A stretch of DNA of 64,000 nt. Source: an uncultured Chloroflexia bacterium. GTDB taxonomy: Bacteria > Chloroflexota > Dehalococcoidia > DSTF01 > JALHUB01. Position 1 is the stretch's first letter. The number at the start of each line of letters is the position of its first letter. Shown here piece by piece: positions 10,541-38,162 of this stretch. Below the pieces are notes generated by a model. It was not told the origin of the DNA, searched no databases, and was given only the letters and a program-made list of their open reading frames with translations. Location: the NCBI GenBank assembly GCA_963703345.1, contig OY969814.1, forward strand, positions 32,001 through 96,000, given 5' to 3'. A program made the position numbers and the translations under genes.

Positions 10541-11266
10541 ACGTCGAAGAATTCCGTTGCCAACGACGACTCACGGCTCCCCACCCGCATCGCCATCATC
10601 ATGGATGGCAACGGCCGCTGGGCGAAGGAGCGCGGCCTCTCTCGCCAGGCCGGGCACCGCGCCGGCACGGAGAACATCCGCCGCATCATCCGCTACCTCG
10701 GCGAGCGCGGCGTCTCCTACCTGACGCTCTACGCCTTCTCAACCGAGAACTGGTCGCGGCCGGGACCCGAGGTGCGCGCTCTCATGCAGCTCGTCGGGCG
10801 CGTCATCAAGCGCGAGATCAAGGAGCTGCATGAGCGCGGCGTCAGGCTGCGGCATCTTGGCCGCCTCGACAATCTGTCGCCGTCACTTCGCCGCCAGGTC
10901 GTCGACGCCCTTGAGCTGACGAAGGACAACAAGGGAATGACGGTCGCAATCGCCTTCGACTACGGCGGCCGGGCGGAAATCGTCGATGCCGTCCGCCGCA
11001 TCATCGCCGACGGCCTGACGCCGGACAGGGTCGGCGAAGATGTCATGTCATCGTACCTCTACACCGCGGGGATGCCAGACCCCGATCTCGTCATTCGCAC
11101 CGCCGGCGAGATGAGGCTGTCCAACTTCCTCATTTGGCAGGCCGCCTACGCCGAGTACTATTCGACGCTGACCTATTGGCCGGATTTCGGGCCGGAGCAA
11201 CTGGAAGAGGCGCTGCAGGCCTACGCGCGACGGGAGCGTCGCTTCGGCGGGCTGGGCGCCGACTAA
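10541..11266 (+). CDS. uppS: Polyprenyl (undecaprenyl) diphosphate synthase; probable ACG start
   Basis: PTRIAIIMDGNGRWA, YAFSTENW, DLVIRTAGEMRLSNF. The conserved P-x-x-IAII lies upstream of the first ATG (10601); GGAGGT SD sits 7 nt before ACG 10541. Confidence 0.9.
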   Translation, partial: TSKNSVANDDSRLPTRIAIIMDGNGRWAKERGLSRQAGHRAGTENIRRIIRYLGERGVSYLTLYAFSTENWSRPGPEVRALMQLVGRVIKREIKELHERGVRLRHLGRLDNLSPSLRRQVVDALELTKDNKGMTVAIAFDYGGRAEIVDAVRRIIADGLTPDRVGEDVMSSYLYTAGMPDPDLVIRTAGEMRLSNFLIWQAAYAEYYSTLTYWPDFGPEQLEEALQAYARRERRFGGLGAD

Positions 11267-11276
11267 CGGGAGAGGC

Positions 11277-12104
11277 ATGCGAAGACCAGGGCGGGACACC
11301 GGAAAGGGATGGAGCAGCCTGGAGCTGCGCGTCGCCAGCGCGGCTGTCGGCATCCCGCTTATCGTTCTCCTCGTCTGGGCAGGCGCCCGCTGGTATACCG
11401 GCGTCGTCGCGGCGTTGCTGATTGCCGCCACGCTGGAGTTCCAGGCGGCGCGCGGCTCTCGCCTCGACGGTCTGGCGCTCCTCGGCGCCGCTCTATCGGG
11501 AAGCCTGGCCGTCGCCGCCCACGCCGGCAACAACTGGCTCGTCTGGGCGATGACGGGCGTCGTCGTGCTGCCGCTGCTTTGGGCGATGACCGTCCGCCCC
11601 ATCGAGGACGCCCTCTCCGAGTGGCTCTGGACCGTCGGCGGCGTGCTCTACCTCGGCTGGCTGGGCTGCCACCTCGTCCTGCTGCGCGACGTCGGCGACG
11701 GCCGCGACTGGGTTTTCCTGGCGCTCTTCTCCACCTTTGCCACCGACACCGCCGCCTACTTCGTCGGCAGGGCCGTCGGCCGCACGCCGCTGGCGCCGGC
11801 GATAAGCCCGGGCAAGACGGCAGAGGGCGCCGTCGGCGGCTTCGTCTTCGGCGTCGCCGCGGTGCTGCTGCTGAACTACCTGCTCGGCCTGCGTGTCGAA
11901 GCCTCGCAGATCGTCCCTCTCGCCTTCCTGCTGCCGGTCGTCGCTCAGCTCGGCGACCTCATCGAGTCGAAGCTGAAACGCGGCATGCAGGTCAAGGACG
12001 CCGGCCGTCTCATCCCCGGCCACGGCGGCCTCATGGACCGCTTCGACAGCGTGCTCCTCGTAACCGTGGTGGTATACTACTATTTGAAGTGGGTGATTCT
12101 GTAA
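11277..12104 (+). CDS. cdsA: Phosphatidate cytidylyltransferase
   Basis: DTAAYFVG, ISPGKTAEG, GDLIESKLKR, KDAGRLIPGHGGLMDRFDS. Confidence 0.95.
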   Translation: MRRPGRDTGKGWSSLELRVASAAVGIPLIVLLVWAGARWYTGVVAALLIAATLEFQAARGSRLDGLALLGAALSGSLAVAAHAGNNWLVWAMTGVVVLPLLWAMTVRPIEDALSEWLWTVGGVLYLGWLGCHLVLLRDVGDGRDWVFLALFSTFATDTAAYFVGRAVGRTPLAPAISPGKTAEGAVGGFVFGVAAVLLLNYLLGLRVEASQIVPLAFLLPVVAQLGDLIESKLKRGMQVKDAGRLIPGHGGLMDRFDSVLLVTVVVYYYLKWVIL

Positions 12105-13243
12105 GCCGTATCGCCATCCTCGGTTCCACCGGCTCCATCGGGCGTCAGACACTCGACGTGGTGCGCGGACTCCGGCAGCGTTTCCGTGTCATTGGACTCT
12201 GTGCCGGGCGCAACGTCACCCTCCTCGAAGAGCAGGCGCACGAATTCTCGCCGCGACTTGTTTGTTGCGACGGAAACGGATCGACACCTGACGGCGTTAT
12301 ACCTTTCGACGGTTTCGAATGCGCTCCAATGGAAGCCATCGCCGCCGATCCGGAAGTCGACCTCGTCGTCATCGCGACTGCCGGCAAGGCGGGCCTCATC
12401 CCGACGCTGAAGGCGCTGGAGGCGGGCAAGACCGTCGCCCTGGCCAACAAAGAAGTGCTCGTCATGGCGGGCCGGCTGGTGAAGGAAGCAGCCCGTCGCG
12501 GTCACGGCGAGATCCGGCCGATCGACAGCGAGCACAGCGCCATCTGGCAGGTAATGCGCGGCGAGAAGAACGCCAACATCCGGCGGCTGATTCTCACCGC
12601 ATCGGGAGGCGCGTTGCGGGACAAGAGCATCGATGAGCTCCACCGCGTGACGCCGGAGCAGGCGCTCTCCCACCCGACCTGGCAGATGGGGCGCAAGGTG
12701 ACAATCGATTCCGCGACGCTCCTCAACAAGGGGCTCGAAGCAATCGAAGCGCGCTGGCTCTTCGACGTGCCGCTGGACAGGATCGAGATAGTGCTGCACC
12801 GGGAAAGCATCGTCCACTCCGTCGTCGAGTTCTCCGACGGGTCGCTGAAGGCCCAGCTCGGCACACCCGACATGCGCGTGCCCATTCAGGTCGCGCTCTG
12901 CTATCCCGACCGGCCGCACCTGCCGTCCGTCCCACGCCTGGACCTGCGACAGCTTGGAGCGCTTCATTTCGCGGAGCTCAAGCTCGACCGCTACCCCTGC
13001 CTGTCGCTGGCCCTCGAGGCCGGGCATCGCGGCGGCACCTACCCAACCGTTCTCTCCGCTGCCGACGAGGTCGCCGTCGAGGGCTTCCTCAGCGGCCGAA
13101 TAGGCTTCACGCGGATCCCGGAGATCATCGATGAGACGTTAAACGCCCACGAAGGCGGCTCCGACGAGAGCCTGGACGAGATCCTTTCAGCCGATGCCTG
13201 GGCGCGCGAATATGCCGAGATTCTTGTAGGAGCGAAAGCGTGA
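12089..13243 (+). CDS. dxr: 1-deoxy-D-xylulose-5-phosphate reductoisomerase
   Basis: IAILGSTGSIG, LANKE, PIDSEH, LTASGG, HPTWQMG, TIDSAT. Start is GTG 12089 or GTA 12101. Confidence 0.95.
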   Translation: MGDSVSRIAILGSTGSIGRQTLDVVRGLRQRFRVIGLCAGRNVTLLEEQAHEFSPRLVCCDGNGSTPDGVIPFDGFECAPMEAIAADPEVDLVVIATAGKAGLIPTLKALEAGKTVALANKEVLVMAGRLVKEAARRGHGEIRPIDSEHSAIWQVMRGEKNANIRRLILTASGGALRDKSIDELHRVTPEQALSHPTWQMGRKVTIDSATLLNKGLEAIEARWLFDVPLDRIEIVLHRESIVHSVVEFSDGSLKAQLGTPDMRVPIQVALCYPDRPHLPSVPRLDLRQLGALHFAELKLDRYPCLSLALEAGHRGGTYPTVLSAADEVAVEGFLSGRIGFTRIPEIIDETLNAHEGGSDESLDEILSADAWAREYAEILVGAKA

Positions 13244-14303
13244 CCGGTCTCCTTCAGTCCCTGCTGCCTTTCCTCGGAATAATCATCGTTCTCGTGCTCG
13301 TCCACGAGTCGGGGCACTTCATCGCCGCGAAGCTCTCCGGCGTGCGGGTGCTGGAGTTCGGCGTCGGCTTTCCGCCGCGCATCGGCGCTTTCAAGTTCCA
13401 CGACACGGAATACTCGCTTAACGCGCTTCCTCTGGGCGGCTTCGTGCGTATGTTCGGCGAAGAGGACCCGTCGGAGCCGGGCTCCCTCGCCTCCAGACCG
13501 AGACACCTGCGACTCTTCGTCCTCAGCGCCGGCGCGCTCTGCAACTTCCTATTCGCTATTCTCCTCTTCAGCGCCAGCTTCATAATCCCGCGACAAGTTC
13601 CGGTCGGACGCGCCCTCATCACCGAGGTCCTGCCCGGCTCGCCCGCCGCGGCCGCCGGCCTGCAGAGCAACGACGTCATTTACAGCATCGACGGCCGCAA
13701 CGTTCAGAACGTCCCCGACGCCAGCTACAACATCCGTCTTCACCTGGGCGAGACGATAAAGATGACGGTCAAGCGCGGCACTGAGTTCGTCGACGTGAAC
13801 GTGAAGGCGCGCTGGGCGCCGCCGTCCGGGCAAGGGCCCACCGGCATCAGCATCTCTTCTCAATACCCCTTCACCGAAACGCAGTCCTACGCCCCCTGGA
13901 CAGCGCTGGGCCTCGGAACACGCGAGACGTTCGATTCACTGAAGCTGGCCCGCAACGAGGTCATCTCCTGGGTCAAGGGCGCCACTGCGCCCCAGGTCAG
14001 CGGACCGGTAGGAATCGTCCAGGCGACGGGTGAGGTCGTCAAGGAGGCAGGCTGGAAGTCGCTCATCGACTTCATGGGCCTCCTCAGCATCAACCTGGCG
14101 GTGATCAACATCCTGCCGTTCCCCTTCCTGGATGGCGGGCGCATCGTCTTCGTCCTGGTCGAGCTGCTGCGGCGCGGCCGGCGCATCGCTCCGCAGAAGG
14201 AGGCGCTGGTGCACCTGGCCGGGCTGGCTGTTCTCCTGACGTTCGTTGTAGTAATAAGCTACTTCGACATCGCCCGGCTCGTCCGCGGCGAAAACATCTT
14301 CCG

Positions 14304-14307
<4 letters not shown>
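13240..14307 (+). CDS. rseP: RIP metalloprotease RseP (M50 + PDZ)
   Basis: HESGH, PLGGFV, PDZ segment, NILPFPFLDGG. Confidence 0.92.
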
Positions 14308-15386
<1,079 letters not shown>

Positions 15387-15398
15387 CGGGGGCGCTGC

Positions 15399-15689
15399 GT
15401 GAACTTCGACGTCATCGCTCTAACCGTCCTCTGCCTGATCTGGGCGGCGTTCGGCGTCATCCCCTGGCTCGTCGTCGCCTATCGACGCAAAGGACGCGGC
15501 ACGCTGGCGCTGCTTCCGTTAGCGAGTGTCGGCGGTGTCGGCGGCGCTGCGCTGGTGCCGGCGCTCGGCGCGCGAAACCTCCCCGCCGTGTTCGGCAGCC
15601 TCGTCGCCGCCATGGCCGGCGGCCTGGCGCTGATGGTCGTCGGGCCGTACGTCACGCGGGCAGTCCGACGACGGGTGGCATCGTCGTAG
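15399..15689 (+). CDS. Small integral membrane protein (about 3 TM)
   Basis: Hydrophobic 96-aa ORF directly after ispG with host-like codon usage. Confidence 0.6.
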   Translation: MNFDVIALTVLCLIWAAFGVIPWLVVAYRRKGRGTLALLPLASVGGVGGAALVPALGARNLPAVFGSLVAAMAGGLALMVVGPYVTRAVRRRVASS

Positions 15690-15699
15690 GAGTTCCGGT

Positions 15700-15720
15700 C
15701 TGAGGGTTTGAAACCCTCAG
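15700..15720. repeat. Palindrome CTGAGGGTTTGAAACCCTCAG
   Basis: Near-identical to the palindrome at 5969-5989; lies between convergent genes. Confidence 0.55.
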
Positions 15721-15804
15721 CTTCCCTCTCACCCCTCCCAGCAGAAGGCTGCGCCTGCATGCTGGCGGGGAGGAGAATGTAGGTCGGCACAGCGGGGGGC
15801 TGTG

Positions 15805-17067
15805 CTATAGAGAGAAGTCGAGTTGCTCTGCGGCGCTCTCTATCATGAGGATGTACGGTCGCATCAGCGGGTTTCGGAAGCCGTACCGGTATAGCCCTCG
15901 CGAACCCCTTCTCCGCAGAACAGCACCCTTCTGATCAGTCAGCAACTCGCCGAGGGCGACGTTGAGGAAGCCTAGATCCTTGAGTGGATCAATGTGAAAC
16001 CGGCGCCGATATAGGTCCCGCACCTCTGCCGTCGAGAAGTCTCGTTCCTTCGCATGCGCCAGCGCTTGCATGATGTGCTGCCTCGGCCGTACGTTGCCTG
16101 ACCGTTCAATAGCTAGCTCTACACTCCTCTTAAACTCCTCCCGAAACTCCGACACCGCAGACTTCACGGCGGAAAACACGTCGTCAGCGATGACTTCGTC
16201 TCGCTGTGCCCGCTTCGCCAAGCGAGCCGCGTGCAATGCAAGCAGATGCAAGACATATGGGAAACCGTCCGAGAGCTCGACTATGCGGTCCACCTCGCGA
16301 CTGTCAACGGCCAGACCTAGAATTGCCATTCCAGTGTTGAGTATGAACTTGAGTTCCTTGGGGGGCATCCGGGTCACCTCGAAGTCAACTGTACGTCTTG
16401 ACGCGGCGGAGGACATGCTCAGGAGGTCCGCCGCCGTGTCGGCTATGCCCGCAATGATGACTTTGACGTTGGTCGTTTCCTCAGCCCTATCCGAAACGAA
16501 ACCAATGAACTGTGTTACTTTGTCTTTGACGTCCGGTTCAGCGACGTTTTCGAAGTTGTCAAAGAAAATGATGTTTCTCCCGGCCTCGATCAGCTTCTCG
16601 AACAACGCGTCGATCAGCGGCCTCTGGACTACTTGGAATTCGCGTGTTTCTGCAGTCCCTTTTTCGGTTCGCAAACTCCCCTTCAGAAACGCAAGCATAC
16701 CCAACCCGCCCCCGCCAGAAACCTCGCCGCTCCCAGAGTGCGTGGTCGACACCTCGATACGGAGTTCCTGAATCTCAGCGATCGCTGCAAACGCGTCGGA
16801 TAGCAAATCATTGAACGATTTTCCACTGAAGCACTCGATGCGGGCTACACTCAGGTCCATCTCGTGAGCAACGTGAAGCACCAGACTGGTCTTACCGACG
16901 CCTGTGTCGCCGTACAGCATGATTTGGCTGCCCGGCTCGCGCAGAGCATCCTCGAACCGCTGTTGAAGCCTGCCCTCGTCCCGCCTGGCGAACATCTCGC
17001 GGCTGACAGGCGCACGGGGGGTAAAGATGCTCTCCGGAACAGGATTTCGTGGCTTATCGACGGTCAT
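15805..17067 (-). CDS. Solo AAA+/STAND-like P-loop ATPase with probable C-terminal winged helix
   Basis: FTP..P...MFARR, Walker A GDTGVGKTS, Walker B IIFFDNFE, GFPYVLH; visibly lower GC than neighbours. Confidence 0.75.
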   Translation of the reverse strand: MTVDKPRNPVPESIFTPRAPVSREMFARRDEGRLQQRFEDALREPGSQIMLYGDTGVGKTSLVLHVAHEMDLSVARIECFSGKSFNDLLSDAFAAIAEIQELRIEVSTTHSGSGEVSGGGGLGMLAFLKGSLRTEKGTAETREFQVVQRPLIDALFEKLIEAGRNIIFFDNFENVAEPDVKDKVTQFIGFVSDRAEETTNVKVIIAGIADTAADLLSMSSAASRRTVDFEVTRMPPKELKFILNTGMAILGLAVDSREVDRIVELSDGFPYVLHLLALHAARLAKRAQRDEVIADDVFSAVKSAVSEFREEFKRSVELAIERSGNVRPRQHIMQALAHAKERDFSTAEVRDLYRRRFHIDPLKDLGFLNVALGELLTDQKGAVLRRRGSRGLYRYGFRNPLMRPYILMIESAAEQLDFSL

Positions 17068-17275
17068 CGCATTCCCCTTGCCACTTCGGCCGAAAGTAAT
17101 GGGACCCTTGGTTGTCGCCTCGGGGCTGAGCTAGTCCGAATAATACGCCGCGTTCCAGGGCGCGGCAAGGGCGCAGACGGGCCACGCCTGGATCCGCGAA
17201 GGGCCTCATCCTTGACCGGGCCGCCTCCCTCCTCTATCCTCGCCTCTGAACCCATCTTCCGACCCAGGAGACCGC

Positions 17276-18976: not shown

Positions 18977-18996
18977 CCGGCCCGGGCAAGAGAGCA

Positions 18997-19251
18997 ATGG
19001 ACTGGGCGCCGGTAGCCACAGCACGCGACGAGATGACCGCGGGCATGTGGGTCGAGCTGCTGCGTAACAACGGCATCCAGGCGTTCACAAGCAGAGGCGA
19101 CGCGCTCGCTTCCAGGCTGGTGCCGTTTGCGCCGACGGCCGTCATGGTGCCCGCCTCGCACCTCGACGAGGCAAAACGCGTCCTGGGCCCTGTTGGCCCG
19201 CAAAAGCGACGTCGCGCCCCTAGAAAGTTCTTCCGAAAAGACGACACCTAG
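18997..19251 (+). CDS. DUF2007-like small protein
   Basis: W..VATARDEMTAGMWVELLRNNGI...VMVP...AKRVL pattern. Confidence 0.65.
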   Translation: MDWAPVATARDEMTAGMWVELLRNNGIQAFTSRGDALASRLVPFAPTAVMVPASHLDEAKRVLGPVGPQKRRRAPRKFFRKDDT

Positions 19252-19394
19252 CTTTTCTACTTTCGCGCGGTGGCGATGGCGGCGGCTTGGAAGGGCCACG
19301 CTGACGTGTCTCCTGACGCTCTGAGCGCCGCCGCGTCGATCCTAACGAGGCTCCAGTCAGGTGGCAGCGTCAGGACGCGTCTGCACGAGCGCCC

Positions 19395-20123: not shown

Positions 20124-20218
20124 CGTCCATCTCCTCGATCCGGCTTCAACGCCAAGCCGGCCGCGCCCATTCTACCCGACCAGTGGCGCGCGAGGCGACC
20201 TCGCGAGTTCACGCGCCC

Positions 20219-20247
20219 TTGCAATCGCATCCTCGCCGTGCTATATT
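20219..20247 (+). promoter_or_regulatory. Promoter of the nusA operon
   Basis: TTGCAA-17 nt-TATATT with TG extension. Confidence 0.65.
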
Positions 20248-20274
20248 TGAGGGCGAGTTAGGGAACTCTTCGGG

Positions 20275-21848: not shown

Positions 21849-22142
21849 ATGGCCGAAAGCGTTCAGATCAGGCCCAAGCACGTGCCCCTGCGCACCTGCG
21901 TCGCCTGCAGGACGACGGGCGCCAAGCGTGGCCTCATACGGATCGTGAGGACGCCGGAAGGCGGCGTCGAAGTGGACGCGACAGGCAAGGCCGCTGGACG
22001 CGGCGCCTACCTTTGCCGGCGACGCCACTGCTGGCAGGAGGCGCTGAAGCGAGAGGGCCTCGCGCGCGCCCTTCGCGTCAAGCTGGGCGATATCGATAGA
22101 GATAAGCTCCAGGCTTTCGCCGAAGAGTTGACGGAGGACTAG
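21849..22142 (+). CDS. ylxR: YlxR family protein
   Basis: PLRTCVACR, LIRIVRTP, GRGAYLC; position between nusA and infB. Confidence 0.9.
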   Translation: MAESVQIRPKHVPLRTCVACRTTGAKRGLIRIVRTPEGGVEVDATGKAAGRGAYLCRRRHCWQEALKREGLARALRVKLGDIDRDKLQAFAEELTED

Positions 22143-22146
22143 TAAC

Positions 22147-24027
22147 ATCGTTAGACCAAGACAGCAAAGGCGACCCGCACGGCCGCGAAGGCCGCAAAAC
22201 CGCGACGCCAGCAGCGCCAGAGCAGCGCCTGCGCCGCGGGTCGTTGCCGCGCCAGAAAGCGGCCAGACAGTCAAAATACCAACGACCCTCACGGTCAAGG
22301 AGCTCAGCGAACTGCTGGGGCTGTCGCCGGTTGAGGTCATCAAGGAGCTCATTAAGAGCGGCGTGATGGCCAGCATCAACCAGGTGATCGACTACGACAC
22401 CGCGGCCATCGTTGCGCACGATCTCGACTACGAGCCGGAGCCAGTCGTCACCGCGTCCGTCGCGGCGGTTGCGCCGCAGATCGTGGAGGGCGCCGCGCCG
22501 GCGGAAGAAGAGGCGGAGGAAAATCTTCAGCCCCGACCGCCGGTCGTCACCTTCATGGGCCACGTCGACCACGGCAAGACCAGCCTGCTCGACGTCATTC
22601 GCGAAAGCGACGTTGCGGGCGGCGAGGCCGGCGGCATGACTCAGCACATCGGCGCCTACCAGGTGAAGGTGAACGAGCAGCGCATAACGTTCCTCGACAC
22701 GCCGGGCCACGAAGCGTTCACCGCCATGCGGGCGCGCGGCGGCAAAGTCGCCGACATCGCCGTCCTCGTCGTGGCGGCCGACGACGGCGTCATGCCTCAG
22801 ACCATCGAAGCGATCGACCACGCCAGGGCGGCCGGGGTCCCCATCGTGGTCGCCCTGAACAAGATCGATGTCGCGCAGGCCAACCAGGACCGCGTCAAGC
22901 AACAGCTCGCGGAGCACACCCTCGTTCTGGAAGAGTGGGGCGGCGACGTCATCTGCGTTCCCGTCTCAGCGAAGACGAAGGAGGGCATCGACAACCTCCT
23001 CGCCAACATCCTCGTCGTAGCCGAGGTCGCGGACCTGAAGGCGAACCCCGACCGAGCGGCGCGCGGCGTCGTCGTCGAAGCGGGAATGGACACGACCCGC
23101 GGCCCGATGGCGACGGTGTTGGTGCAGAAAGGCACGCTTCACCAGGGCGACATGGCGGTCGTCGGCGAGACGCTTGGCAGGGTGAAGGCCATGTTCAACG
23201 AACACGGGCGTCGCATCAAGTCGGCAGGACCGTCATCTCCCGCCAAAGTCCTCGGCCTCAGTGCCGTTCCCGGCGCCGGCGAGCCATTAGTCGTCGTGCC
23301 TGACGAGAAGACCGCGCGGACTATCGTGACGGAGAGGCAACGACGGCGAGAGGCCGCAGCTTTCCGCGAGCGCCACACCCTCAGCCTCGATACCCTTTTC
23401 GGCGAGATCAGCGCCGGCAAGGTGAAAGAGCTGAACATCATCCTCAAGACGGACGTGCAGGGCAGCGTGGAACCGATCCGGACGTCGCTGGAGCGCCTGA
23501 GCACCGAAGAGGTACACGTCAAGGTAATCCACTCCGGCTCCGGCAGCATCACCGAGTCGGACATTATGCTGGCGCTGGCCTCGAAGGGGATCATCATCGG
23601 CTTCAACACGCGGCCGGAGCCCGGCGCTCTTCGCCAGGCCGAAATCGAGGGCGTCGAGATCAACCATTACAACGTCATCTACGAGGTCGTGGACGACGTG
23701 GAGAAGGCGCTCAAGGGGATGCATGAGCCCGTCTTCAAAGACGTGATCGACGGCCACATCGAGGTCCGACAGGTCTTCAAGGTTAGCCGCCAGGGCAACA
23801 TAGCCGGTTGTTTCGTCCGCGACGGCACGGTGACCCGCAACTCGCTCGTCAGGGTCACCCGCGGCGACGAAGTCATCGCGGAAACCACTATCTCCAGCCT
23901 GCGACGCTTCAAGGACGATGTCCGCGAGGTGCAGGCCGGATATGAGTGCGGCATCACGCTCGCCGGCTTCGATGCCTTCCAGGAAGGCGACGTTCTGGAG
24001 TTCTACCACCGCGAGCGCGCCAACTAG
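22147..24027 (+). CDS. infB: Translation initiation factor IF-2; probable ATC start
   Basis: IF2_N ([14 protein letters not shown]...VMASINQ) begins upstream of the first GTG; [21 protein letters not shown]. In-frame TGA at 22129; GGAGG 9 nt before ATC. Confidence 0.93.
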
Positions 24028-24081: not shown

Positions 24082-24444
24082 ATGACCAGCAGACGTATCG
24101 CCCGCCTCAACGATGCCTTCCGCGAAGAGATCAGCGATCTCCTGCTACGCCAGGTGAAGGACCCGCGGCTCACCGGCTTCATAACAATCACCCGCGTCGA
24201 GATCTCCGGCGACCTCAGCCACGCCAAAGTCTTCGTGAGCGTGATGGGCAGTGAGGAGGATAAGGATGAGGCGCTGCGCGGCCTGGTAGCCGCCTCGTCG
24301 TTCCTGCGGCGCGAGATCGGCCACCGCCTTTCCCTGCGGCGCGCGCCCGAGCTCAGCTTTCGCCGCGATGAGTCGATGGAGCAGGGCGCCCACGTGCTGG
24401 ACCTGCTGGACGAGGTCGCGGACCAGGAGAAACCCTCTTCTTGA
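24082..24444 (+). CDS. rbfA: Ribosome-binding factor A
   Basis: KDPRL, ITRVEISGDLSHAKVFVS, PELSF..D. Confidence 0.95.
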   Translation: MTSRRIARLNDAFREEISDLLLRQVKDPRLTGFITITRVEISGDLSHAKVFVSVMGSEEDKDEALRGLVAASSFLRREIGHRLSLRRAPELSFRRDESMEQGAHVLDLLDEVADQEKPSS

Positions 24445-25361
24445 CCTTGGACGGCTTTCTGAATATCAACAAGTCCCCCGGCTGGACCTCCTTCGACATC
24501 GTCGCCTTCGTGCGGCGGGAGAGCGGCGTCCGTCGCGTTGGCCACGGCGGCACGCTCGACCCCTCGGCTGAAGGCGTGCTCGTGGTCGCGCTCGGGCAGG
24601 CGACCCGCTTCCTCGAATACCTTCTCGATGCGCGGAAGCGCTATCGGGCGCAGGTGCGCCTTGGCGCGGTCACCGACACATACGACGGCGAAGGGACGGT
24701 CGTTCGCACCGCTGATCCGTCCTCAGTCACGAGGGAGATGGTCGACAGCGCTCTCCCGGCGTTCCGGGGCGCCATCAGCCAGACGCCGCCGATGTTCAGC
24801 GCCCTCAAGCGCGACGGCGTCCCGCTCTACAAGCACGCGCGCGCCCAGCGAGAGGTGGAGCGGGAGGCGCGGACGGTCCAGGTCTACCGGCTGGAGCTCG
24901 TCGACTTCGCGCCGCCGTCGTTCACCGTCGAAATCGAGTGCGGGCGCGGCTTCTACGTCCGCAGCCTTGCCCACGACCTGGGCGAGCGGCTCGGTTGCGG
25001 CGCCCACCTGGAGAGGCTCACCAGAACGGCGGTCGGTCTCTTTGACCGCGAGTCGTCGGTGGGAACGGAGGCGCTGCGCGAAGCCTTTCGCGACGGCTCC
25101 TGGCAGCGGCTGCTCCTGCCGCTCGACAGCGTCCTCCTTCACTGCTACGCCGCAATCCTGGGCGAACGGAACGAAAGCGAGCTGCGTTTCGGCCGCGCCC
25201 TCAGCCTGACGCCGGCGGATGAAGGGCGAATTCGCTCCCTGCCGGCCGCCGCTCCCTGCCGCGCCTACAGCATCGATGGACGGCTCCTCGGCCTCCTGAC
25301 CTACGGCGAAGACGCGATCTGGCAACCGAAAAAGGTCCTTTCGACGCCGCAAGAGGCTTGA
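24441..25361 (+). CDS. truB: tRNA pseudouridine(55) synthase
   Basis: GHGGTLDP, TDTYDGEG, PPMFSALK, YVRSLAHDLG. Confidence 0.95.
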   Translation: MTLDGFLNINKSPGWTSFDIVAFVRRESGVRRVGHGGTLDPSAEGVLVVALGQATRFLEYLLDARKRYRAQVRLGAVTDTYDGEGTVVRTADPSSVTREMVDSALPAFRGAISQTPPMFSALKRDGVPLYKHARAQREVEREARTVQVYRLELVDFAPPSFTVEIECGRGFYVRSLAHDLGERLGCGAHLERLTRTAVGLFDRESSVGTEALREAFRDGSWQRLLLPLDSVLLHCYAAILGERNESELRFGRALSLTPADEGRIRSLPAAAPCRAYSIDGRLLGLLTYGEDAIWQPKKVLSTPQEA

Positions 25362-28555: not shown

Positions 28556-28643
28556 CGGCTCCCCTCTCTCAAGTCGAGTCGCGCCTGCCTACCGGCTGGG
28601 CCCTCTCGACGGCAGGCACGCGCGAACGAACAACAGTGAGGTA

Positions 28644-29567: not shown

Positions 29568-29582
29568 CGGCCTCTCGCCTGC

Positions 29583-30494
29583 TCAGGGCCCGGAGGCCAG
29601 CGCCGTCTCGGTGTGCGCCGCCTTGGAGTTACGGTCCCACATGTCGTGGAAGATGAACCACTGGTTGGGGTCCAGGCGAATGAGCCGCTCCAGGGAGGTC
29701 ATGATGGCCTGCGTCAGGCGGCGGACGTCTTCTTCTTCGTCGCCCGACTTCTCGAAATTGAGGTCGAAGTCGATGATGGGGCGAATCAGCTTCTCTTCTC
29801 CCTTGACGCGCAGCATGATGCCCGGCATGGGGCGGGCGCCGCTCCTCAGGGCGAGGCGCGCCGGACCGACGGGGACTTCCGTCGGCGCGCCGAAGAAGTT
29901 GACCCGAACGGTGCCGCCGGGCTCCGGCACGTCGATGAGCAGCGCCAGGATTTCGCCGCGCCGCAACGCCCTGATTATGCTCGGCCCGACTTTCTCCATC
30001 GGCGTCACCTTCATCCCGAGATGACGGCGGGAGCTCTGCACGAGTGTGTTCATCGCCGGATGGGGGAAGGTCTCAGCGATGACGTTGACGGGGAAGCCGT
30101 AAGCCGAGAGGCCGGCCGCGCCCATGTCCCAGTTGCCGTAGTGCAGGGTGATGAAGATCACGCCTTTCTTCTCAGCCATGACGGCGTTGATGCGGTCCAG
30201 CTCCTCGTCGAAGACGATGCGGCGGCGAACCTCCTCCGGCGTTGAATCAAGGAAGTGGATGAAGTCGATGACGTACTTGCCGAAGTTGCGGAAGGAGCTG
30301 CGGGCGGCCAGGCTTATCGCGTTCTCGTCGTCGGTATCCAGAACGCGGGCCATGGCTGCCTTGAGGGCACGGCGCTTGCCGAAGAAGAAGACGTAGCACA
30401 CATCGGCGATGACGCGGGCGAAGAAGTATCCGACTTCAGGCGGGAGGGGACGCCCCAGCAGGATGATGAGGCGAAACAGCCAGTAAACGATCAT
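29583..30494 (-). CDS. Lysophospholipid acyltransferase family (PatA/LpxL-like), second paralog
   Basis: [16 protein letters not shown]...[12 protein letters not shown]; ATGA overlap with the ino1 stop. Confidence 0.85.
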
Positions 30495-31567
30495 GCCTTG
30501 CTCTTGGCGATGAACTCCTCCACCATTGCCCGCGCGCGGTCGTCCGTGTACTGCTTGGGCGGCGACTTCATGAAGTAGGAAGAGGGACCCACCAGCGCTC
30601 CCGATATCCCGCGGTCGAGCGCGAGCTTGCAACAGCGGATAGCATCGATGACGACGCCGGCGGAGTTGGGGCTGTCCCACACTTCCAGCTTGAGCTCCAG
30701 GTTGAGCGGCACGTTCCCGAACGTCGTCCCTTCCATGCGTATGTGGCACCACTTGCGGTCGAGCAGCCAGGGAATGTAGTCGCTGGGGCCGACGTGGATG
30801 TCGTCGGCCGGCATCTCGTAGTCGAGCTGCGACGTAACGGCGTTAGTCTTGGAGATCTTCTTCGATTCCAGACGCTCGCGCTCCAGCATATTGAGGAAGT
30901 CGGTGTTGCCGCCGAAGTTGAGCTGGTACATTCGGTCGATGCGGACGCCGCGGTCGCGGAAAAGGCGCGTGAGCACGCGGTGAGTGATCGTCGCGCCTAC
31001 CTGCGACTTGACGTCGTCGCCGATAACGGGGAGGTTGCGCTCCTTGAAGCGGCTCTGCCAGTAAGGTTCGCGCGCGATGAACACGGGTATGCAGTTGATG
31101 AGGCCGCAGCCCGCGGTCAGCACCTGCTCGACGTACCACTTCGTCGCTTCCTCGCTGCCGACCGGCAGGTAGTTGAGGACGACGTGCGTCTCAGTGTCAC
31201 GCAGGATGCCGACGATGTCGTCGGTTGGGCCCGGCGCCTTCTTGATGATCTGTGAGAGGTACTTGCCCAGGCCGTCGTGGACCATGCCGCGATGGACGCG
31301 CACGCCCATCGCAGGCACGTCGGCGAACTTGAACGTGTTGTTGGGCGCCGTATAAATGGCCTCCGAGAGGTCCTTGCCGACCTTGTTGGCGTCGATATCG
31401 AAGGCGGCGACGAAGTTGACGTCGCCGATGTGGTAACCGCCGAGGTTGGGGTGCATTATGCCGGGGATCGTCTTGTCGTCACCGGCGTCGCGGTAGAAGT
31501 GGACGCCCTGGACAAGGGAGGAGGCGCAGTTGCCCACGCCGATGATGGCCACGTTTATCTTTCCCAC
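30491..31567 (-). CDS. ino1: myo-inositol-1-phosphate synthase
   Basis: [55 protein letters not shown]. Confidence 0.95.
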
Positions 31568-31772
31568 GTTACACACTCCAGGAATCAGCCGGCGTGCTCA
31601 GGTCCATCTCAGCCCATCCCTCGGCAGTGCCGCTCCCGATCGCCGGCAGTGGGGAAAGCGGGACGGCCCGCTGCATTCTATCAATAGCGGCCGTTCACCG
31701 GCAAGCGAAAGGAAGACGAGGATTGTTCGCGAGAATACCGATGAAAGAGCAGGCCGACGGGCGTGAAGGGCG

Positions 31773-32642
31773 TTAGATGGCCCAGCGCGAACGCGCCATC
31801 TCGCGCTCTTCTCTCGCCAGCGTCAGGTTGTGACGGGCGCGACCGACGAGCGCTTCCGCCCCCTGCTCGTGCTCCATGATGGAGGCGACGCCAATGGAGA
31901 CGCCGATGGGAAAGCTGAGCGGCCGGCCTTCGAGGACCAGCGTCGTGGATGGGCCGTCGAGATACTGCCGTACACGCTCGGCGAAGGCCTCGGCCCCGTC
32001 GCGGTCGCAATCCAAAAGGAGGATGGCGAACTCGTCGTCCGCCAGGCGCACGGCCACGTCCGAGCCGCGCTTAGCCGATTCGATAACTCCGGCGACGCGG
32101 CCGAGGGCGGCGCAACCGGCTGCGTCGCCGTAAGCATGGTTGATCATCCGTAGACTGTTCACGTTCAGGACGGCCACGGAGAAAGCTTCGCCATAGCGAC
32201 GCGCCCGCGAATACTCTTCGCGCAGTCGCAGCCAGAAGTACTGCTCATCAGGCAGCCCGGTGACGGCGTCGCGCGTCAGAGGCAGGCCCGTACGCACCAA
32301 ACCGTTCCTTGCGCTGCGCAATCGCACGAGGGCCGTGACGCACACGACGCAGACGGCAAACGCCAACGGAAACCGCATCGCCGTTATGTAGGGCTGCGAA
32401 TCGGCGCGCTCTGCCAGTCCGAGAAGCAGCGAGGAGGTGACGAGCGCGAGCGCCAGAAAGAGGTAGCGCTCCAGCTCGCGCAGTTCCGGAGGCGTCGCCC
32501 GCACGGCCGCGACTTTGCCGCGCAGGTGCAGAGGATGCAGACTGGGACGGTGCCAGCCGGGCGCTTCCTCCAGGCGAGAGACACGGCGGGCGGCCGCGTC
32601 TTCGCCCGAAAAGGTCTGCTGTTCCCCCAACGAATGCTTCAT
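31773..32642 (-). CDS. Membrane protein with degenerate GGDEF domain (ADDEF; RxxD I-site present)
   Basis: Two TM helices, then RDAVTGLP...RGSDVAVRLADDEF. Start uncertain (ATG 32642 or GTG 32864). Confidence 0.75.
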   Translation of the reverse strand: MKHSLGEQQTFSGEDAAARRVSRLEEAPGWHRPSLHPLHLRGKVAAVRATPPELRELERYLFLALALVTSSLLLGLAERADSQPYITAMRFPLAFAVCVVCVTALVRLRSARNGLVRTGLPLTRDAVTGLPDEQYFWLRLREEYSRARRYGEAFSVAVLNVNSLRMINHAYGDAAGCAALGRVAGVIESAKRGSDVAVRLADDEFAILLLDCDRDGAEAFAERVRQYLDGPSTTLVLEGRPLSFPIGVSIGVASIMEHEQGAEALVGRARHNLTLAREEREMARSRWAI

Positions 32643-32784
32643 TGACCGAACGCTCCCGGGTCTGCCCATCCAGTAGATCATCGGCCGATTGCTGCTTACC
32701 TGATGGGCGTTTGAAGGCGAAATTTGCGAAACGGGCGGCGGCGAGAAGCGGCGAGCGCGGTCTGCGGCAGTTGTAACGCCATCT

Positions 32785-32810
32785 CGGGCCGCTCGGGTTG
32801 CCGAGCGGCC
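32785..32810. repeat. REP-like hairpin, copy 2
   Basis: Identical to 1641-1666; both copies are preceded by CGCCATC. Confidence 0.7.
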
Positions 32811-32860
32811 TCTCCCCTGCGGCGGGACCTCGTCGCTCCTGAGCGTCATCTTCGGCCGGG

Positions 32861-33556
32861 TCACGCCGTCTCTTTACCGCCGATCTCTGCGTATGCCATC
32901 GCGATCTCGTCGCCGTCCTTGCCGAACACGACGACGTAGTCGAGATACGGATCGTCGACCCGGAAGGAGACGGTTACCGGCGAAGGAGACCCGAGCTCGA
33001 AGTCGGCCCGAGGATGGTTGAGGAAGACGCCGTAGCCTCGACTACTGGAGCACGAGGGATTCATCAGTCCCACCGCTGCCGGACAAAGAACGCGCTCCTC
33101 AGCCGACAGCTCGAAGCTTTCGTGGAAGGCGACGCGGCCGCGGGAATCGCGCGAGTAGCCAAGCGGCAGCGACACGAGGCGCGTCGGCGTTACGTCGCCG
33201 ATCTGCTGGACGATGATCTTTCGCCCCGCGAAATCGAAGACGCCGTAGTGGAAGGGACGGCGGACAACCCGTAGCTCGAGCGCCCGGCTGCGCACAACAA
33301 TCCGGCCTTCCCGCGTCTCCACTCTCACCTGCTCCGACGACTCCATCGCATCCACGCGGATCGGGCCATCAGCGACCCGTCGGCAGCGGACGCGGACGGC
33401 CTGCGGCGAGACGAAGCGGACATCCAGCGTCATCGCCTCGCCGTCGTTCGTCAGCACAGCGAAGCGGGCGCCGCCGGGCACACGATGATAGCGCTGCACT
33501 CGCGAGAGGTAGCGGTAGCTGCGCGTCGGGTCGTCGAAGATCGTGACTTCCGGCAT
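32861..33556 (-). CDS. GH31 (YicI-like) N-terminal beta-sandwich-only protein, possibly a remnant
   Basis: SSRGYGVFLNH, FELGS, LDYVVVFG...YAEIGGK match the GH31 N-terminal region; the ORF stops before the catalytic barrel; GGGAGG SD. Confidence 0.6.
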   Translation of the reverse strand: MPEVTIFDDPTRSYRYLSRVQRYHRVPGGARFAVLTNDGEAMTLDVRFVSPQAVRVRCRRVADGPIRVDAMESSEQVRVETREGRIVVRSRALELRVVRRPFHYGVFDFAGRKIIVQQIGDVTPTRLVSLPLGYSRDSRGRVAFHESFELSAEERVLCPAAVGLMNPSCSSSRGYGVFLNHPRADFELGSPSPVTVSFRVDDPYLDYVVVFGKDGDEIAMAYAEIGGKETA

Positions 33557-33769
33557 GGCCTCCCTTCCGCCGTCGCTTCATTCTAGGGCCGCCGCAGCTT
33601 CCAGAGAACGACAGCGTAAGGAAAGCACAGGAAAAGCGCTGGAAAAGCGTCAAGCTCCGGATCTGCGGCAACGCTACGATGGCGGCAGCAACGGCGATTT
33701 GTGGCCGGGGGTTTTCGAGTAGACGGTGGGGCGGTCAAACGGGCGGCGCCTGAGCGGGCCGCCGCTCGT

Positions 33770-36607
33770 TCACAGGTCGAGACGAAATCCCCGGCCTCTT
33801 ATTGTCACAATGAAGAGCTTCGAGGCGCCGGCCGCGCGCAGGCGATCGCGGACACGGTGGACCAGGGCGTCGACCGCCTCATCCGAGACCCCGCCGAACG
33901 CTTCCGGCCAGGCGCGTTGAATGATATCGTCGCGCAGACACAGCTTGCCGGCGTTCTCAAAGAGATAAGCCAGCAGCGAGTACTGCTCGCGGGACAGCGG
34001 CGGCATAATCTCTTTCCCTCTAACGAAGACTTGCTGGGTTCTCGTGTTGACGTAAAGCTCTTGCTCCTCTAACGGCTCCGCGACAAGCACCGGGAGCGCA
34101 CCGACGCCGGTCGTCGCCAGCACCGCCTCTGACGGCACAATTGCAGTAACGCGTCTACGCCGCCGAACGCGCACGAGCACGACGGCGCCGGCGGCAAGCG
34201 CAACCGCGGTCGCCATCGAAATCGACAGGATGAGCGGGAGGACAAGATCCCGGCTGCCCGACCCGCCGGCGGCGAGGTTCTGCACCGTCAGCGGTTCTGC
34301 GGACCAGGCGAGATCGCCGCTCTTGACCGTCAGACCAACGTTGCCCGACTGGTCGATGGTACCCTGGGCGCCTGCAATGCCGTCGATGGCCTGGGCCGCC
34401 ATGTCCTGGATTGTGCCGTCAGGAAGGTTGAGCACAAAGTCCACTTTCGTACCGTTCGGCACGCGATGCCCGTTCTTGGCGACCAGCGTCAACGTCAGCG
34501 CGAGCGTGAACGGCTCGCCGACGAGCAATTGCGGCGGGTCGACGCTAAGGGCCGGCGTTTGTGTCGGGTCCGCAGTGACGCTATCGCTGAGGTCGTTTAC
34601 AACGTAGCCCTCGTAGATGTAGTCGACGGGGAGCTTGCCGCTCGTAACGCCGTCGCGGAGGATCGTCGGGTCCTGGAAGAGGACCTTCAGCGTCGCCTTG
34701 AGCGACGGCTCGATCTTGCTGTACGCGGCGACGAACAAGTTTACGTTGCGCAGCTCGCCGGAGTCGAGATGATAAGGCGAGTTGTAGGCGAAGACGACGA
34801 CCTTCTTCGAACGCAAGTCGAAGAGGGCCGGGCCGCTGCGCAGGAAGTCCTTCAGGACGCCGGACGAAGGGTAGTTGGGGTCGGGCTCGAGGAAGGCGAA
34901 GACGATCCATCCCGCGTCCTCAACCGCCTTCTTGACCGCCGCATCCCCCTTGCCCGCCAGCACGGCGCCAAGCTGCGTGAAGCTGATAGTGTTCAGGTTC
35001 TCCTTCGGCACGCGCCCCGGGAACATCTGGTCAACCAGGCTTGCCAGCTTGCCGCGCGGCCAGAGAGGCGGATAGCTCGTATCGGTCCCGGGCGTGGCGC
35101 AGCCGGCATCGTCCCAGCACTCGACGAAGAGGATGTGGTCGGCAGCGCCGGGAACGGGCATCTGCCGCTGGAGCTCTTCGCTTGTCGTCGGCAGGATGAG
35201 AGTGAGCGCGTCGTCGGCTATCGAGGTCACTTCGCTCAGCCTGTCCGGCTGGCCCACCTTTCCCTGGTACTCCGGCATCTTCGTGATCGTCGCCGCATCG
35301 AAGCCGCCGTACAGCCGCGACTTGAGCGTGAGCACCCGACGGGCGGCGTCGTCTATGCGCGCCTTCACCATCGGGTCGGCGTCGTAGCGGCTGACCAGGT
35401 AGTCAACGGTTGCGGTCAGATCCTCCCACTGCCAGGGACGGATCAGCGGCAGCAGGTCGTTTCCGGCCATCAGCGCTTCCAGCGCCAAGTCCGCCTGACG
35501 GTAGGTGCCAAACTTCAGTTGCGCGTAGGCTTCGACGGCGCCGGTTGCCAGGTCGTCGGCAACAGTCACGCCGCCCGCCTGCCGCCAGGCAGCGAAGTAC
35601 GGCAGCCCGAAGAACGATTGCATGCAGGTGGGGCTGAAGCCGACCGGCGTCCCCGCTTCGCAGCCGGCGACCCCGGAGTAGCTGAGATGCGAGATCATGA
35701 TGCCGTCGGCGGTCCCCTTGTCACCCGGCTTCCCCTGCGAGACGGTGGCGAATGGAAGGAGGTCGACTTGCGCCAGCGCGTCCAGCGTCTTTCCTACGAC
35801 AACCGGCACGTCCACGGACTCCACCGAGCGCGTGCTCTCCCCGTGACCCGGGAAGTGCTTGGCAACCGCGGCCAGCTTCCCGCCGCCGCACTGCTGGATG
35901 CCGCTAACGTAGGCCGCGCCCATCTCGCCGACCCAGCGCGGGTCGCCGCCGAACACCCGTATCCCCTGGTCCCCGGCGCCGCCCGAGCGCGGCAGGTCGA
36001 GCACGTCGAGATCGGGACCGAAGAGCATGTTGACGCCCACCGCCGAAAGCTCCTGGCCGACAATGCAGCCTATCTTCTCCGCCTGGGCCGGATCGAAGGT
36101 GGCGCCGATCGTCATGTTGCTAGGGATGGGCGTGAAGCGATTGAGCAGTCGCGTCGCCGGCCGGTCGTCGCCCTCGTGGTCGATGCTCACCAGCAACGGC
36201 AGGCAGTACGTCACGCCGTTGACGGTAACGCTCATGGAGGAGCAGGCGGTCTTTTGCAGATCGTTCGTCAGGCGGGCTACCTGGGCGGGCGTGTCGGGAT
36301 CAGCTTCAGCGGGAAAGCCGCATCCCTGCGGATCGTGGTTCGTGCCGTTGAAGATGTTGCAGGTCTCGCGGCTGAGGTAGACGCCGCCGAGTTGATGGTC
36401 GTTGATGAACTGGCGCACATCAGGCGTCACCTCGTCGCCCTGGAAGCCGCTGATGAAGAGCTGCTCGACCTTTTGCCGCGCCGTCAGAGCCGCCAGTATC
36501 TTGTCGACGACATCGCTGGTTTGCGGGGTCGAGCGGGCGTACGCCGTCGGCGCGTTAAGGAACACGCCGCAGAGAAGCAGCGCCAATAGGACTCGTCGCG
36601 GTCCCAT
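33770..36607 (-). CDS. Signal peptide-GH3 (NagZ-like)-beta domain-TM-OmpR-type winged-helix fusion protein
   Basis: Signal peptide ...PTAYA; GH3 motifs SIDHEG, GVNMLFGPDLDV, KHFPGHG, ADDL, AGND; TM followed by RRRRR; C-terminal LSREQYSLLAYL...VDALVHRVRDRL...IVTIRGRGFRL. Confidence 0.85.
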   Translation of the reverse strand: MGPRRVLLALLLCGVFLNAPTAYARSTPQTSDVVDKILAALTARQKVEQLFISGFQGDEVTPDVRQFINDHQLGGVYLSRETCNIFNGTNHDPQGCGFPAEADPDTPAQVARLTNDLQKTACSSMSVTVNGVTYCLPLLVSIDHEGDDRPATRLLNRFTPIPSNMTIGATFDPAQAEKIGCIVGQELSAVGVNMLFGPDLDVLDLPRSGGAGDQGIRVFGGDPRWVGEMGAAYVSGIQQCGGGKLAAVAKHFPGHGESTRSVESVDVPVVVGKTLDALAQVDLLPFATVSQGKPGDKGTADGIMISHLSYSGVAGCEAGTPVGFSPTCMQSFFGLPYFAAWRQAGGVTVADDLATGAVEAYAQLKFGTYRQADLALEALMAGNDLLPLIRPWQWEDLTATVDYLVSRYDADPMVKARIDDAARRVLTLKSRLYGGFDAATITKMPEYQGKVGQPDRLSEVTSIADDALTLILPTTSEELQRQMPVPGAADHILFVECWDDAGCATPGTDTSYPPLWPRGKLASLVDQMFPGRVPKENLNTISFTQLGAVLAGKGDAAVKKAVEDAGWIVFAFLEPDPNYPSSGVLKDFLRSGPALFDLRSKKVVVFAYNSPYHLDSGELRNVNLFVAAYSKIEPSLKATLKVLFQDPTILRDGVTSGKLPVDYIYEGYVVNDLSDSVTADPTQTPALSVDPPQLLVGEPFTLALTLTLVAKNGHRVPNGTKVDFVLNLPDGTIQDMAAQAIDGIAGAQGTIDQSGNVGLTVKSGDLAWSAEPLTVQNLAAGGSGSRDLVLPLILSISMATAVALAAGAVVLVRVRRRRRVTAIVPSEAVLATTGVGALPVLVAEPLEEQELYVNTRTQQVFVRGKEIMPPLSREQYSLLAYLFENAGKLCLRDDIIQRAWPEAFGGVSDEAVDALVHRVRDRLRAAGASKLFIVTIRGRGFRLDL

Positions 36608-36665
36608 GCTAGGCAGAGTATAGGCTCCAGCAGCGCTGAAGCATAGGGGTCTAGGGATGCTTTTC

Positions 36666-38162
36666 CTAACGAACCCAGTGCCTGGCGCGATCCACGGCTT
36701 GCTTCCAGCCGGCGTACATCTCCTCGCGCCTGGCTTCGTCCATCTGCGGCTCAAAGACGCGGTCGGCGTGCCAGAGCCGGCCCAACTCGTCGCGACTCGA
36801 CCAGAAGCCAGCGCCCAGTCCGGCCAGGAACGCCGCGCCCAGGGCGGTCGTCTCCAGCACGGCGGAGCGCAGCACGCGACGCCCCAGGATGTCGGCCTGG
36901 ATCTGCATCAGCAGGTTGTTGCGGGCGGCGCCGCCGTCGACGCGCAGCTCCGGCATGCTCACACCCGACTCTCGCTCCATCGCCTCGACGACGTCGCGCG
37001 ACTGGAAAGCGATCGCCTCCAGCGTCGCGCGGGCGATGTGGGCGGCAGTCGTGCCCCGCGTCATGCCGAGGATGGCGCCGCGGGCGTACTGGTCCCAGTA
37101 AGGCGCGCCAAGGCCAACGAAGGCGGGCACCATATAGACGCCATCGCTGGACTCGACGCCGGAAGCGAGCGATTCGACTTCGCTTGACCTGCCGATTACC
37201 CCGAGCCCATCGCGCAGCCAGGCGACAGCCGCGCCGGTGACGAAGATGCTCCCCTCCAGCGCATATCCCAGCTCATCGCCGAGCTGCGAGGCGACGGTCG
37301 CAAGCATCGTCTGCGACGGCGCGACCCGGTCGCCGGTGTGCATGAGGACGAAGGAGCCGGTGCCGTAGGTGTTCTTCGCCATTCCCGGGCTGAAGCAGCC
37401 CTGGCCGAAGAGCGACGCTTGCTGGTCGCCGGCGATGCCCGCCACGGGCGCTTCGATCCCCAGCAGCGACTTCTCGGTGGTGCCGACGGCGCCGCTGGAG
37501 GGCCGGATCTCAGGCAGGACGGCCTCCGGCACATCCAGCTCGCGCAGCAGATCGGGGTCCCAGGCGCCGCGACGCAGATTGTAGAGCATCGTGCGGGAGG
37601 CGTTCGTGGCGTCGGTCACGTGAGCGGCGCCGCCGGTGAGGCGGTAGGTGAGCCAGCTATCAACGGTTCCGAACGCCAGCTCGCCCCGCTCCGCCTTTCG
37701 CCGCGCCCCGTCGACGTTGTCCAATATCCAGCGCAGCTTCGTACCCGAGAAGTAGGCGTCGATGACGAGGCCGGTGCGTTCGCGGACAAACGATTCCATG
37801 CCCCGCGCGCGCATCTCGTCGCACATCGAAGCGGTGCGCCGGCACTGCCAAACGATGGCGTTGTAGACGGGCCGGCCGCTGGCGCGCTCCCAGACGATCG
37901 TCGTCTCCCGCTGGTTCGTTACGCCGACCGCGGCGACGTCCGAGGCGTCGATGCCCGTCTGAGCGGCCTTTCGCAGCACCTGCCTGGCGGCAGCAAGCTG
38001 GGAGGACCAGATCTCCTCGGGGTCGTGCTCCACCCAGCCGGCCTGGGGGTAGATCTGCCGGAAGGACTCGCCGGCCTCAACGACCGGTTTCCCGACTTCG
38101 TCGAAGAGGACGGCGCGGGAGCTGGAGGTCCCCTGGTCAAGCGATAGGATGTAGCGGGCCGT
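36666..38162 (-). CDS. glpK: Glycerol kinase; probable ACG start
   Basis: [52 protein letters not shown]. An ACG start at 38162 gives 498 aa. Confidence 0.93.

Follow-up and report, generated by a model that had tools for sequence, protein, structure and literature searches.

Which codons begin translation when intact housekeeping genes lack an in-frame ATG, GTG or TTG at their N-termini is the question raised by a 64,000-nucleotide stretch of DNA from an uncultured Chloroflexia bacterium (the window; positions 32001-96000 of the single 2.28 Mb contig of this genome, 64% G+C). In the window, uppS, infB and glpK appear to start with ACG, ATC and ACG, respectively, and the original prediction, made from the letters of the window, was that start-codon selection is generally relaxed in this lineage or, as a second option, that weak starts are put to regulatory use. 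Comparison with related genomes indicates that near-cognate starts are genuine here, are conserved in the lineage and affect about 1% of genes. Bulk tests show discrimination between start codons to be largely intact, so that global relaxation is not supported, and the near-cognate codons may well be weak initiation sites repressed by IF3, as at infC, a reading to which a probability of roughly one half is assigned.

For comparison with the genome (G000), 40 relatives were available (G002-G008, G010 and others), of which eight belong to the genus, nine more to its family (f1) and 23 to four other families of the order. An HflX from this family and an IF3 from this genus have as their nearest named relatives mostly proteins labelled Dehalococcoidia or Chloroflexota. 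A dicodon model called 1,846 genes in G000, and pairwise comparisons covered 1.2 Mb of G008 (about half of that genome) and 954 kb of G010 (about 40%). ACG, ATC, ATA, ATT and CTG are here termed near-cognate, and ATG, GTG and TTG are abbreviated to NTG. Coordinates outside the window are genome coordinates.

The three genes of the window bear out what had been read from them, each having no in-frame NTG at its N-terminus and a Shine-Dalgarno (SD) sequence at proper spacing. The gene for IF2, infB (22147..24027, +; 626 codons), has a predicted ATC start (22147-22149) 9 nt downstream of a GGAGG (22133..22137, +; -9.5 kcal/mol). An in-frame stop lies six codons before the ATC with no NTG between, the next NTG is at +72 codons and the TIGR00487 match begins at residue 40. 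The ATC is present in all nine genomes of the genus, together with the AGG core of the SD, and the other genera have ATG or GTG in the 16 rows in view (one further locus was unanchored and four lay outside the view). For uppS (10541..11266, +; 241 codons) the predicted start is an ACG (10541-10543), with an SD, GGAGGT (10528..10533, +; anti-SD pairing of -10.5 kcal/mol), within the last codons of frr (9980..10537, +; ATG start; same frame as uppS). The in-frame stop two codons before the ACG is the TAG of frr, no NTG intervenes, and the next one, at +20 codons, falls inside the IMDGN catalytic motif, while NCBIfam matches begin at residues 6-13 (TIGR00055 at residue 13). The ACG is also found in G002 and G003, and in the 36 codons displayed for 27 other loci an NTG is present in 23. 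At the four loci L011, L019, L023 and L029 no NTG appears over the 36 codons that precede the catalytic motif, which may reflect independent non-standard starts or longer N-termini. One metagenome contig carries the uppS ACG, but it is identical to G002 over this stretch and is therefore not independent. Lastly, glpK (36666..38162, -; 498 codons) has an ACG (38162-38160) 7 nt after a GAGGG (38170..38174, -; -7.0 kcal/mol), a stop nine codons before it with no NTG between, and its next NTG at +43 codons, inside the family match. The homologous codon is ATG or GTG in 29 of 29 relatives, so the ACG is private to G000. Public contigs (run X1) match glpK with one difference over eight pieces and end 11 nt short of the ACG; for this gene alone among the sites, assembly error or decay is a possible, if doubtful, explanation.

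Genome-wide, 16 near-cognate starts with comparative support were identified among the 1,846 called genes (about 1%; 0.9-1.4% with about eight further, unsupported candidates taken into account). These are infC (ATA, 1515946), infB (ATC, 54147), rplU (ATT, 1858269), rsfS (CTG, 696209), hflX (ACG, 1618013), gatA (CTG, 24914), ftsW (ATA, 2058791), a sepIVA-like gene after coaD (ATC, 1163759), dedA/uptA (CTG, 268523), larB (ATC, 862549), larC (CTG, 861772), alr (ATC, 500522), uppS (ACG, 42541), an ECF-type sigma factor (CTG, 596601), glpK (ACG, 70162) and bcp (ACG, 2101956). Four of the names are presumptive and come from motifs or gene order, namely those of ftsW, larC, the sigma factor and the sepIVA-like gene, the last of which had no NCBIfam match. 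All 16 sites have SD energies of -7.0 to -16.4 kcal/mol at normal spacing, although several came from a screen that required an SD, and the next NTG lies +15 to +85 codons downstream. At 14 of the 16 no NTG occurs between the upstream stop and the near-cognate codon, the exceptions being infC, with a TTG 27 codons upstream, and bcp, with a GTG inside its SD. Fourteen are common to independent genomes, with glpK and bcp private, and these 14 are thus not base-call errors; the lineage-level use first proposed is supported. Six of the 16 are translation genes.

Near-cognate use in this lineage is well above the annotated bacterial rate of about 0.05% (ATG, GTG and TTG together making up 99.95% of starts, 10.1101/063800; 0.004-0.024% for individual near-cognate codons, PMC5499595), the baseline being annotation and the comparison having no same-method control outside the class. 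Among 537 G000-G010 gene pairs, 13 G000 genes were flagged and seven were kept after inspection; with the sigma factor and infC, the count is nine of 537 (1.7%) in G000, and five in G010. With three sites in 57 genes, the window is denser in such starts than the genome as a whole (Poisson p 0.014-0.043) and so, although its three sites are real, overstates their frequency.

The idea of a generally relaxed start selection fared less well. In a bulk SD profile of 1,630 genes only ATG (0.31), TTG (0.19) and GTG (0.18) were above background, while ACG (0.089), ATC (0.070) and CTG (0.054) were not. Genes without a good NTG showed no enrichment of SD-led near-cognate codons (Fisher p 0.49 in G000, 0.11 in G008 and 0.57 in G010), and permutation against other codon sets, with a null that also counts codons adjoining true sites, gave 11 versus 8.5 (p 0.26, 818 pairs) and 4 versus 1.4 (p 0.06, 546 pairs). 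Among the 231 SD-led ATG starts compared from G008, the G000 counterpart is ATG, GTG or TTG in 224 cases and a clear switch to ACG in two, where the T-to-C rate at four-fold sites between the two genomes is 48%. By the SD and switch tests, and at about 1% of genes, near-cognate starts are not broadly spread over the genome.

Aligned loci point to nested ages for the sites, from class-wide (infC, hflX, rsfS) through several families (rplU, gatA, ftsW, dedA) and the genus (infB) to a sub-clade (alr, larC, uppS) and to G000 itself (glpK, bcp). The ATA of infC is found in G000 and in most order loci displayed. In a panel of 30 rsfS loci (one unanchored, three others mixed or ATG), CTG occurs in 13 of 13 family genomes and in four genomes of two other families, ACG in three genomes of a fourth family, and ATG or GTG in six of six genomes of family f2; outside the order, CTG is found in five of five genomes. 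For rplU, 28 anchored loci (two more were unanchored) have ATT in 12, ATC in one and NTG in 15. For gatA, CTG is present in 11 of 11 genomes of f1 and f3 and NTG in eight of eight others. The start is ATA in six of six loci for ftsW, ATC or ATA in seven of seven for larB, CTG in three of six for larC and ATC in eight of ten for the sepIVA-like gene, and dedA has CTG in six, ACG in one and TTG in one. The origin of one younger site can be followed at alr, where the ATC is an internal Ile codon four codons after a TTG or GTG in G004-G006, and has become the sole start, preceded by a new SD, in G000, G003, G007 and G008, all four within a clade that has support of 1.0. For bcp, six of six relatives have ATG.

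At hflX, another of the old sites, fragments from 20 relatives have ACG in 10, ATA in three and ATC in three, and a class-wide test at a fixed position, with no SD filter, covered 80 loci across Dehalococcoidia, of which 73 were anchored. ACG, ATA, ATC, ATT and CTG replace one another at the one aligned position. A near-cognate codon is present in 36 of the 73 loci, with an SD at or below -5 kcal/mol in 34 of these 36, and NTG in 27, of which 26 are SD-less and one has a strong SD; ten loci belong to neither class. A TANNNT box stands immediately upstream in 17 of the 27 NTG loci. Because IF3 represses leaderless as well as non-canonical initiation (PMC9723500, PMC5499595), either hflX architecture would be sensitive to IF3, which suggests that control has been selected for and not any one codon.

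IF3, RsfS and HflX all keep or pull ribosomal subunits apart; the E. coli records describe RsfS as a silencing factor and HflX as a rescue factor, and both genes have a weak start, TTG, in that species too. Low IF3 would therefore raise these proteins together with IF2 and L21. In the mechanism proposed, fMet-tRNA would initiate at near-cognate codons behind strong SDs, and the output of the oldest set (infC, hflX and rsfS, joined later by rplU, infB and gatA) would be tied to the ratio of IF3 to 30S subunits, such that the output of subunit-splitting, anti-association and initiation factors rises when IF3 is scarce. At the younger sites (alr, larC, uppS, the sigma factor, glpK and bcp), the canonical start would have been lost by deletion or point mutation, with a strong SD keeping output sufficient. 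Tolerance of this kind is in line with the finding that SDs are generally stronger at weak starts (PMC5622118). Replacement of Arg25 by Leu in the IF3 of the order may ease such tolerance, but did not create the pattern. Regulatory use of weak starts, the second option offered at the outset, fits better than general relaxation. A fuller proposal, put forward tentatively and with the odds against it, is that start codons define an IF3 regulon of several genes in Dehalococcoidia (IF3, IF2, HflX, RsfS, L21 and GatA), in which hflX switches between an SD with a near-cognate codon and a leaderless AUG so as to stay IF3-sensitive, and that the order-wide replacement of Arg25 lowered proofreading to a degree that lets essential genes go on acquiring ACG, ATC and CTG starts.

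Several points weigh against repression by IF3 as the explanation. Feedback by IF3 has been demonstrated for infC in E. coli only, and 10 of the 16 sites lie outside translation. The functional skew is partly ascertainment, conserved genes being easier to detect, and the three genome-wide statistical tests are not significant. The hflX genomes are related, so the statistical strength of the contrast is overstated. Family f2, with ATG or GTG at rsfS (6/6) and TTG or GTG at gatA, indicates that the weak start is dispensable. The baseline of 0.05% is drawn from annotation, in which such starts are under-called (10.1101/063800, PMC5499595). Moreover, constant low output would give the same picture in the sequences.

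That last possibility, in which the starts are real but simply set a constant low output, with no IF3 feedback beyond infC, is a serious rival, although on balance rather improbable. Near-cognate codons initiate at 1-2% of the AUG level in E. coli (10.1101/063800), and stronger SDs generally accompany weak starts (PMC5622118). Many sites belong to enzyme or envelope genes (uppS, alr, ftsW, dedA, larB, larC), and E. coli rsfS and hflX themselves start with TTG, which is weak but canonical. Nevertheless, hflX almost never has a strong SD with ATG and alternates instead between two states that are reportedly repressed by IF3, and a weak SD with ATG would cut output more simply. A fixed 1-2% is also a poor fit for IF2 and L21, which are normally abundant proteins.

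Repression by IF3 must also be set against a weakened IF3, the other serious rival, according to which the IF3 of the order proofreads poorly, near-cognate codons are nearly equal to AUG and such starts drift in; this is unlikely. A divergent IF3 had been suspected and does exist. Alignment with solved structures through the G008 protein, which is the same as that of G000 at these positions, places Leu where E. coli has Arg25 and Lys where it has Gln33, while Arg66 and Tyr75 are kept. Leu25 occurs in G000 and in 30 of 30 order loci, and the residue at position 33 is Lys or Arg in the order, while Arg25 is present in five of five outgroups and in 128 of the 137 cluster representatives that cover the position. 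Arg25 is termed invariant and contacts the elbow of the initiator tRNA (PMC9723500). The elbow of the initiator tRNA of G000 (1259983-1260057, -) also differs, with G57 and a D-loop that is 2 nt shorter than the one in E. coli metZ, as in G010. The three G-C pairs of this tRNA look normal, as do IF1, also suspected, and the 16S 3' end with its anti-SD (16S positions being judged against E. coli numbering); motifs of rsmA and fmt are present. In E. coli, IF3 mutants show higher AUU and AUA initiation, about 5-fold for AUU in the triple mutant, and R25A does not restore start-codon fidelity (PMC9723500). Recent gain of near-cognate starts by the normally essential uppS, alr and infB would also fit poor proofreading, as would the private bcp ACG, which is matched without difference by a public contig (depth 5.4; the run may be the source sample).

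Against this, Leu25 is neither necessary nor sufficient, since all five Arg25 outgroups use CTG at rsfS and three of the five use ATC or ATT at hflX, and f2 has Leu25 together with canonical starts at rsfS, gatA and the sepIVA-like gene. Near-cognate use is thus not confined to the Leu25 lineage, and its oldest sites occur where IF3 is normal. The near-complete retention of NTG at the G008 ATG starts and the ATA of infC, kept across the order and implying working autoregulation, argue in the same direction, and the basic residue at position 33 may compensate, with Arg66 and Tyr75 retained. Leu25 may still be relevant for the younger sites. Two further observations concern these molecules. The initiator tRNA has C1 opposite U72, and the IF3 C-domain (1516195 region; L055, L057-L060) has the sequence RQVRF in genus g1 as well as in three sister genera, and REVRF or REIRM in other members of the order.

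For uppS only, the protein might come from ribosomes that read through the frr stop or re-initiate by coupling, and not from SD-led initiation at the ACG, but this is quite improbable. The arrangement invites it, as frr and uppS are in frame and a single codon apart in G000, G002 and G003, the gap consisting of the stop and one codon with no spacer (window 10535-10543); the other genus members have a spacer with ATG or GTG. However, the frr stop differs (TAG in G000, TAA in G002 and G003), the ACG is kept while the codon next to it varies, GGAGG is present at normal spacing, and no suppressor tRNA was found among 53 tRNA calls. Least probable is that assembly errors or gene decay account for the sites, because, despite frameshifts in three of 448 G000 genes tested (61 of 847 in G008) and a private glpK ACG outside the public contigs, 14 of the 16 recur in independent genomes, bcp has its public match, and the genes scanned have unbroken reading frames and match their families over the full length.

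The other starts named for the window belong to the canonical class. The GTA proposed for dxr (12089..13243, +) is rejected, being an internal codon (12101) downstream of a GTG at 12089; of 30 loci, all 24 anchored ones have an NTG at or near the GTG codon (GTG at the same codon in 15, ATG in one), and the codon at the GTA position varies. A TATACT box in the last codons of cdsA (window 12073-12091) lies 10 nt before the dxr GTG, and 'ATAC(T)' recurs there in many relatives, which suggests an internal promoter with a very short leader. The TTG and GTG starts that had been counted as part of the pattern do not belong to it: rpsB (7819..8679, +) has a TTG found in 23 of 30 loci, and an ATT start was rejected because of this conservation; tsf (8680..9183, +) has a GTG that is retained throughout the genus and in several other genera; and, from the sequence, rseP (13240..14307, +) starts with GTG and truB (24441..25361, +) with TTG at 24441 or 24447. 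The genes that earlier annotation named dtd (6802..7266, -; GTG; outside 10541..38162) and fmdB-like, a zinc-ribbon gene (7276..7611, -; TTG), are likewise canonical. Start usage in 743 SD-led genes is about 66% ATG, 22% GTG and 12% TTG, with G008 and G010 alike, and the GTG and TTG shares are above the cross-species means of 11.6-13.8% and 4.4-7.8%, respectively (PMC5499595, 10.1101/063800). NTG starts are also found at rplJ, selA, dnaA, rpsL, coaD, infA, frr and rbfA. Motifs of hslV, phoH and several others had no match, which does not show that the genes are absent.

About eight further G000 candidates without comparative support stand outside the 16. Two adjacent acyltransferase-like paralogues (1441831 and 1443870, +) both have a CTG 7 nt after GAGGT, with a TGA preceding the GAGGT that closes the frame and the first NTG about 90 codons on. 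Other SD-led candidates on the + strand are at 288312 (ATA), 418811 (CTG), 1192855 (ACG), 1770895 (ATA) and 2167870 (ATC), where no NTG follows the upstream stop. Six of the 13 flags from the G010 comparison were dropped for a prfB frameshift or unaligned N-termini, an acyltransferase gene among them being kept only as an unsupported candidate, and thiL-like, dgt-like and gcvPB-like genes with four others were dropped for a nearby NTG. A first comparison with G008 (127 and 144 flags) was discarded, most flags being false because of conserved untranslated regions, and a screen without homology gave 72 flags among 1,630 genes, most of them false, and missed infC and the true infB codon. The earlier impression of no frameshifts is correct for the core genes named and not for the genome. 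Those detected against G010 lie in a ClpC-like gene (~1270765) and two nearby genes (1319327-1323202) and are likely to be assembly errors. The prfB-like gene (825570, -) has an in-frame stop just before a conserved block, which we take to be the usual programmed frameshift arrangement. A tRNA-Sec (161712-161809) and a selA-like gene (1803243) are present.

Start-codon autoregulation has so far been established for one gene only. If the reading of repression by IF3 is true, a set that includes IF2 and two splitting or anti-association factors would form a feedback circuit on ribosomal subunit balance. In addition, the order carries a natural substitution at the 'invariant' Arg25, where E. coli cannot be sustained on the single alanine mutant (PMC9723500), and so offers a direct test of the role of the IF3 N-domain in fidelity. 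In practice, a gene caller restricted to NTG would trim 15 to 85 residues from these proteins, and uppS would begin inside its catalytic motif. Searches found no paper on rsfS CUG, non-canonical rplU starts, non-AUG starts in Chloroflexota or alternative starts in Dehalococcoides (few subscription journals were covered and supplements lay outside the search), nor, by title or abstract opening, any on the start codons of infB or hflX.

Two elements of the picture are already known, namely the IF3-controlled near-cognate start of infC and small conserved sets in Deinococcus. The infC gene starts with AUU, AUC or AUA and is translationally autoregulated by IF3 (PMC5499595, PMC2830850). As there, an SD-led near-cognate codon replaces AUG and is conserved in relatives, and infC itself starts with ATA in G000; the present set differs in comprising at least 15 further genes and five codon types including ACG and CTG, and in including IF2 itself, with IF3 repression of these further genes being predicted. 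In Deinococcus, non-canonical starts are described for dnaA (ATC), rpsL (CTG), infC and Deide_03051 (PMC2830850), again a small lineage-conserved set of core genes and proposed there to be regulatory. The genes here are different (dnaA and rpsL have NTG) and about four times as numerous, the gains are nested down to single strains, and the evidence is drawn from sequence where that in Deinococcus includes proteomic proof. The IF3 of the order resembles the E. coli R25A/Q33A/R66A mutants (PMC9723500) in having both Arg25 and Gln33 replaced, but its substitutions are natural (Leu25, Lys or Arg33), Arg66 is kept, and near-cognate starts occur also in Arg25 outgroups. Finally, Mycoplasma gallisepticum, with its frequent AUU and AUC starts (PMC5499595), shares a species-level excess of near-cognate starts, whereas in the present bacterium this involves about 1% of genes in a GC-rich genome of 2.3 Mb whose anti-SD is intact and whose initiator tRNA has the three G-C pairs.

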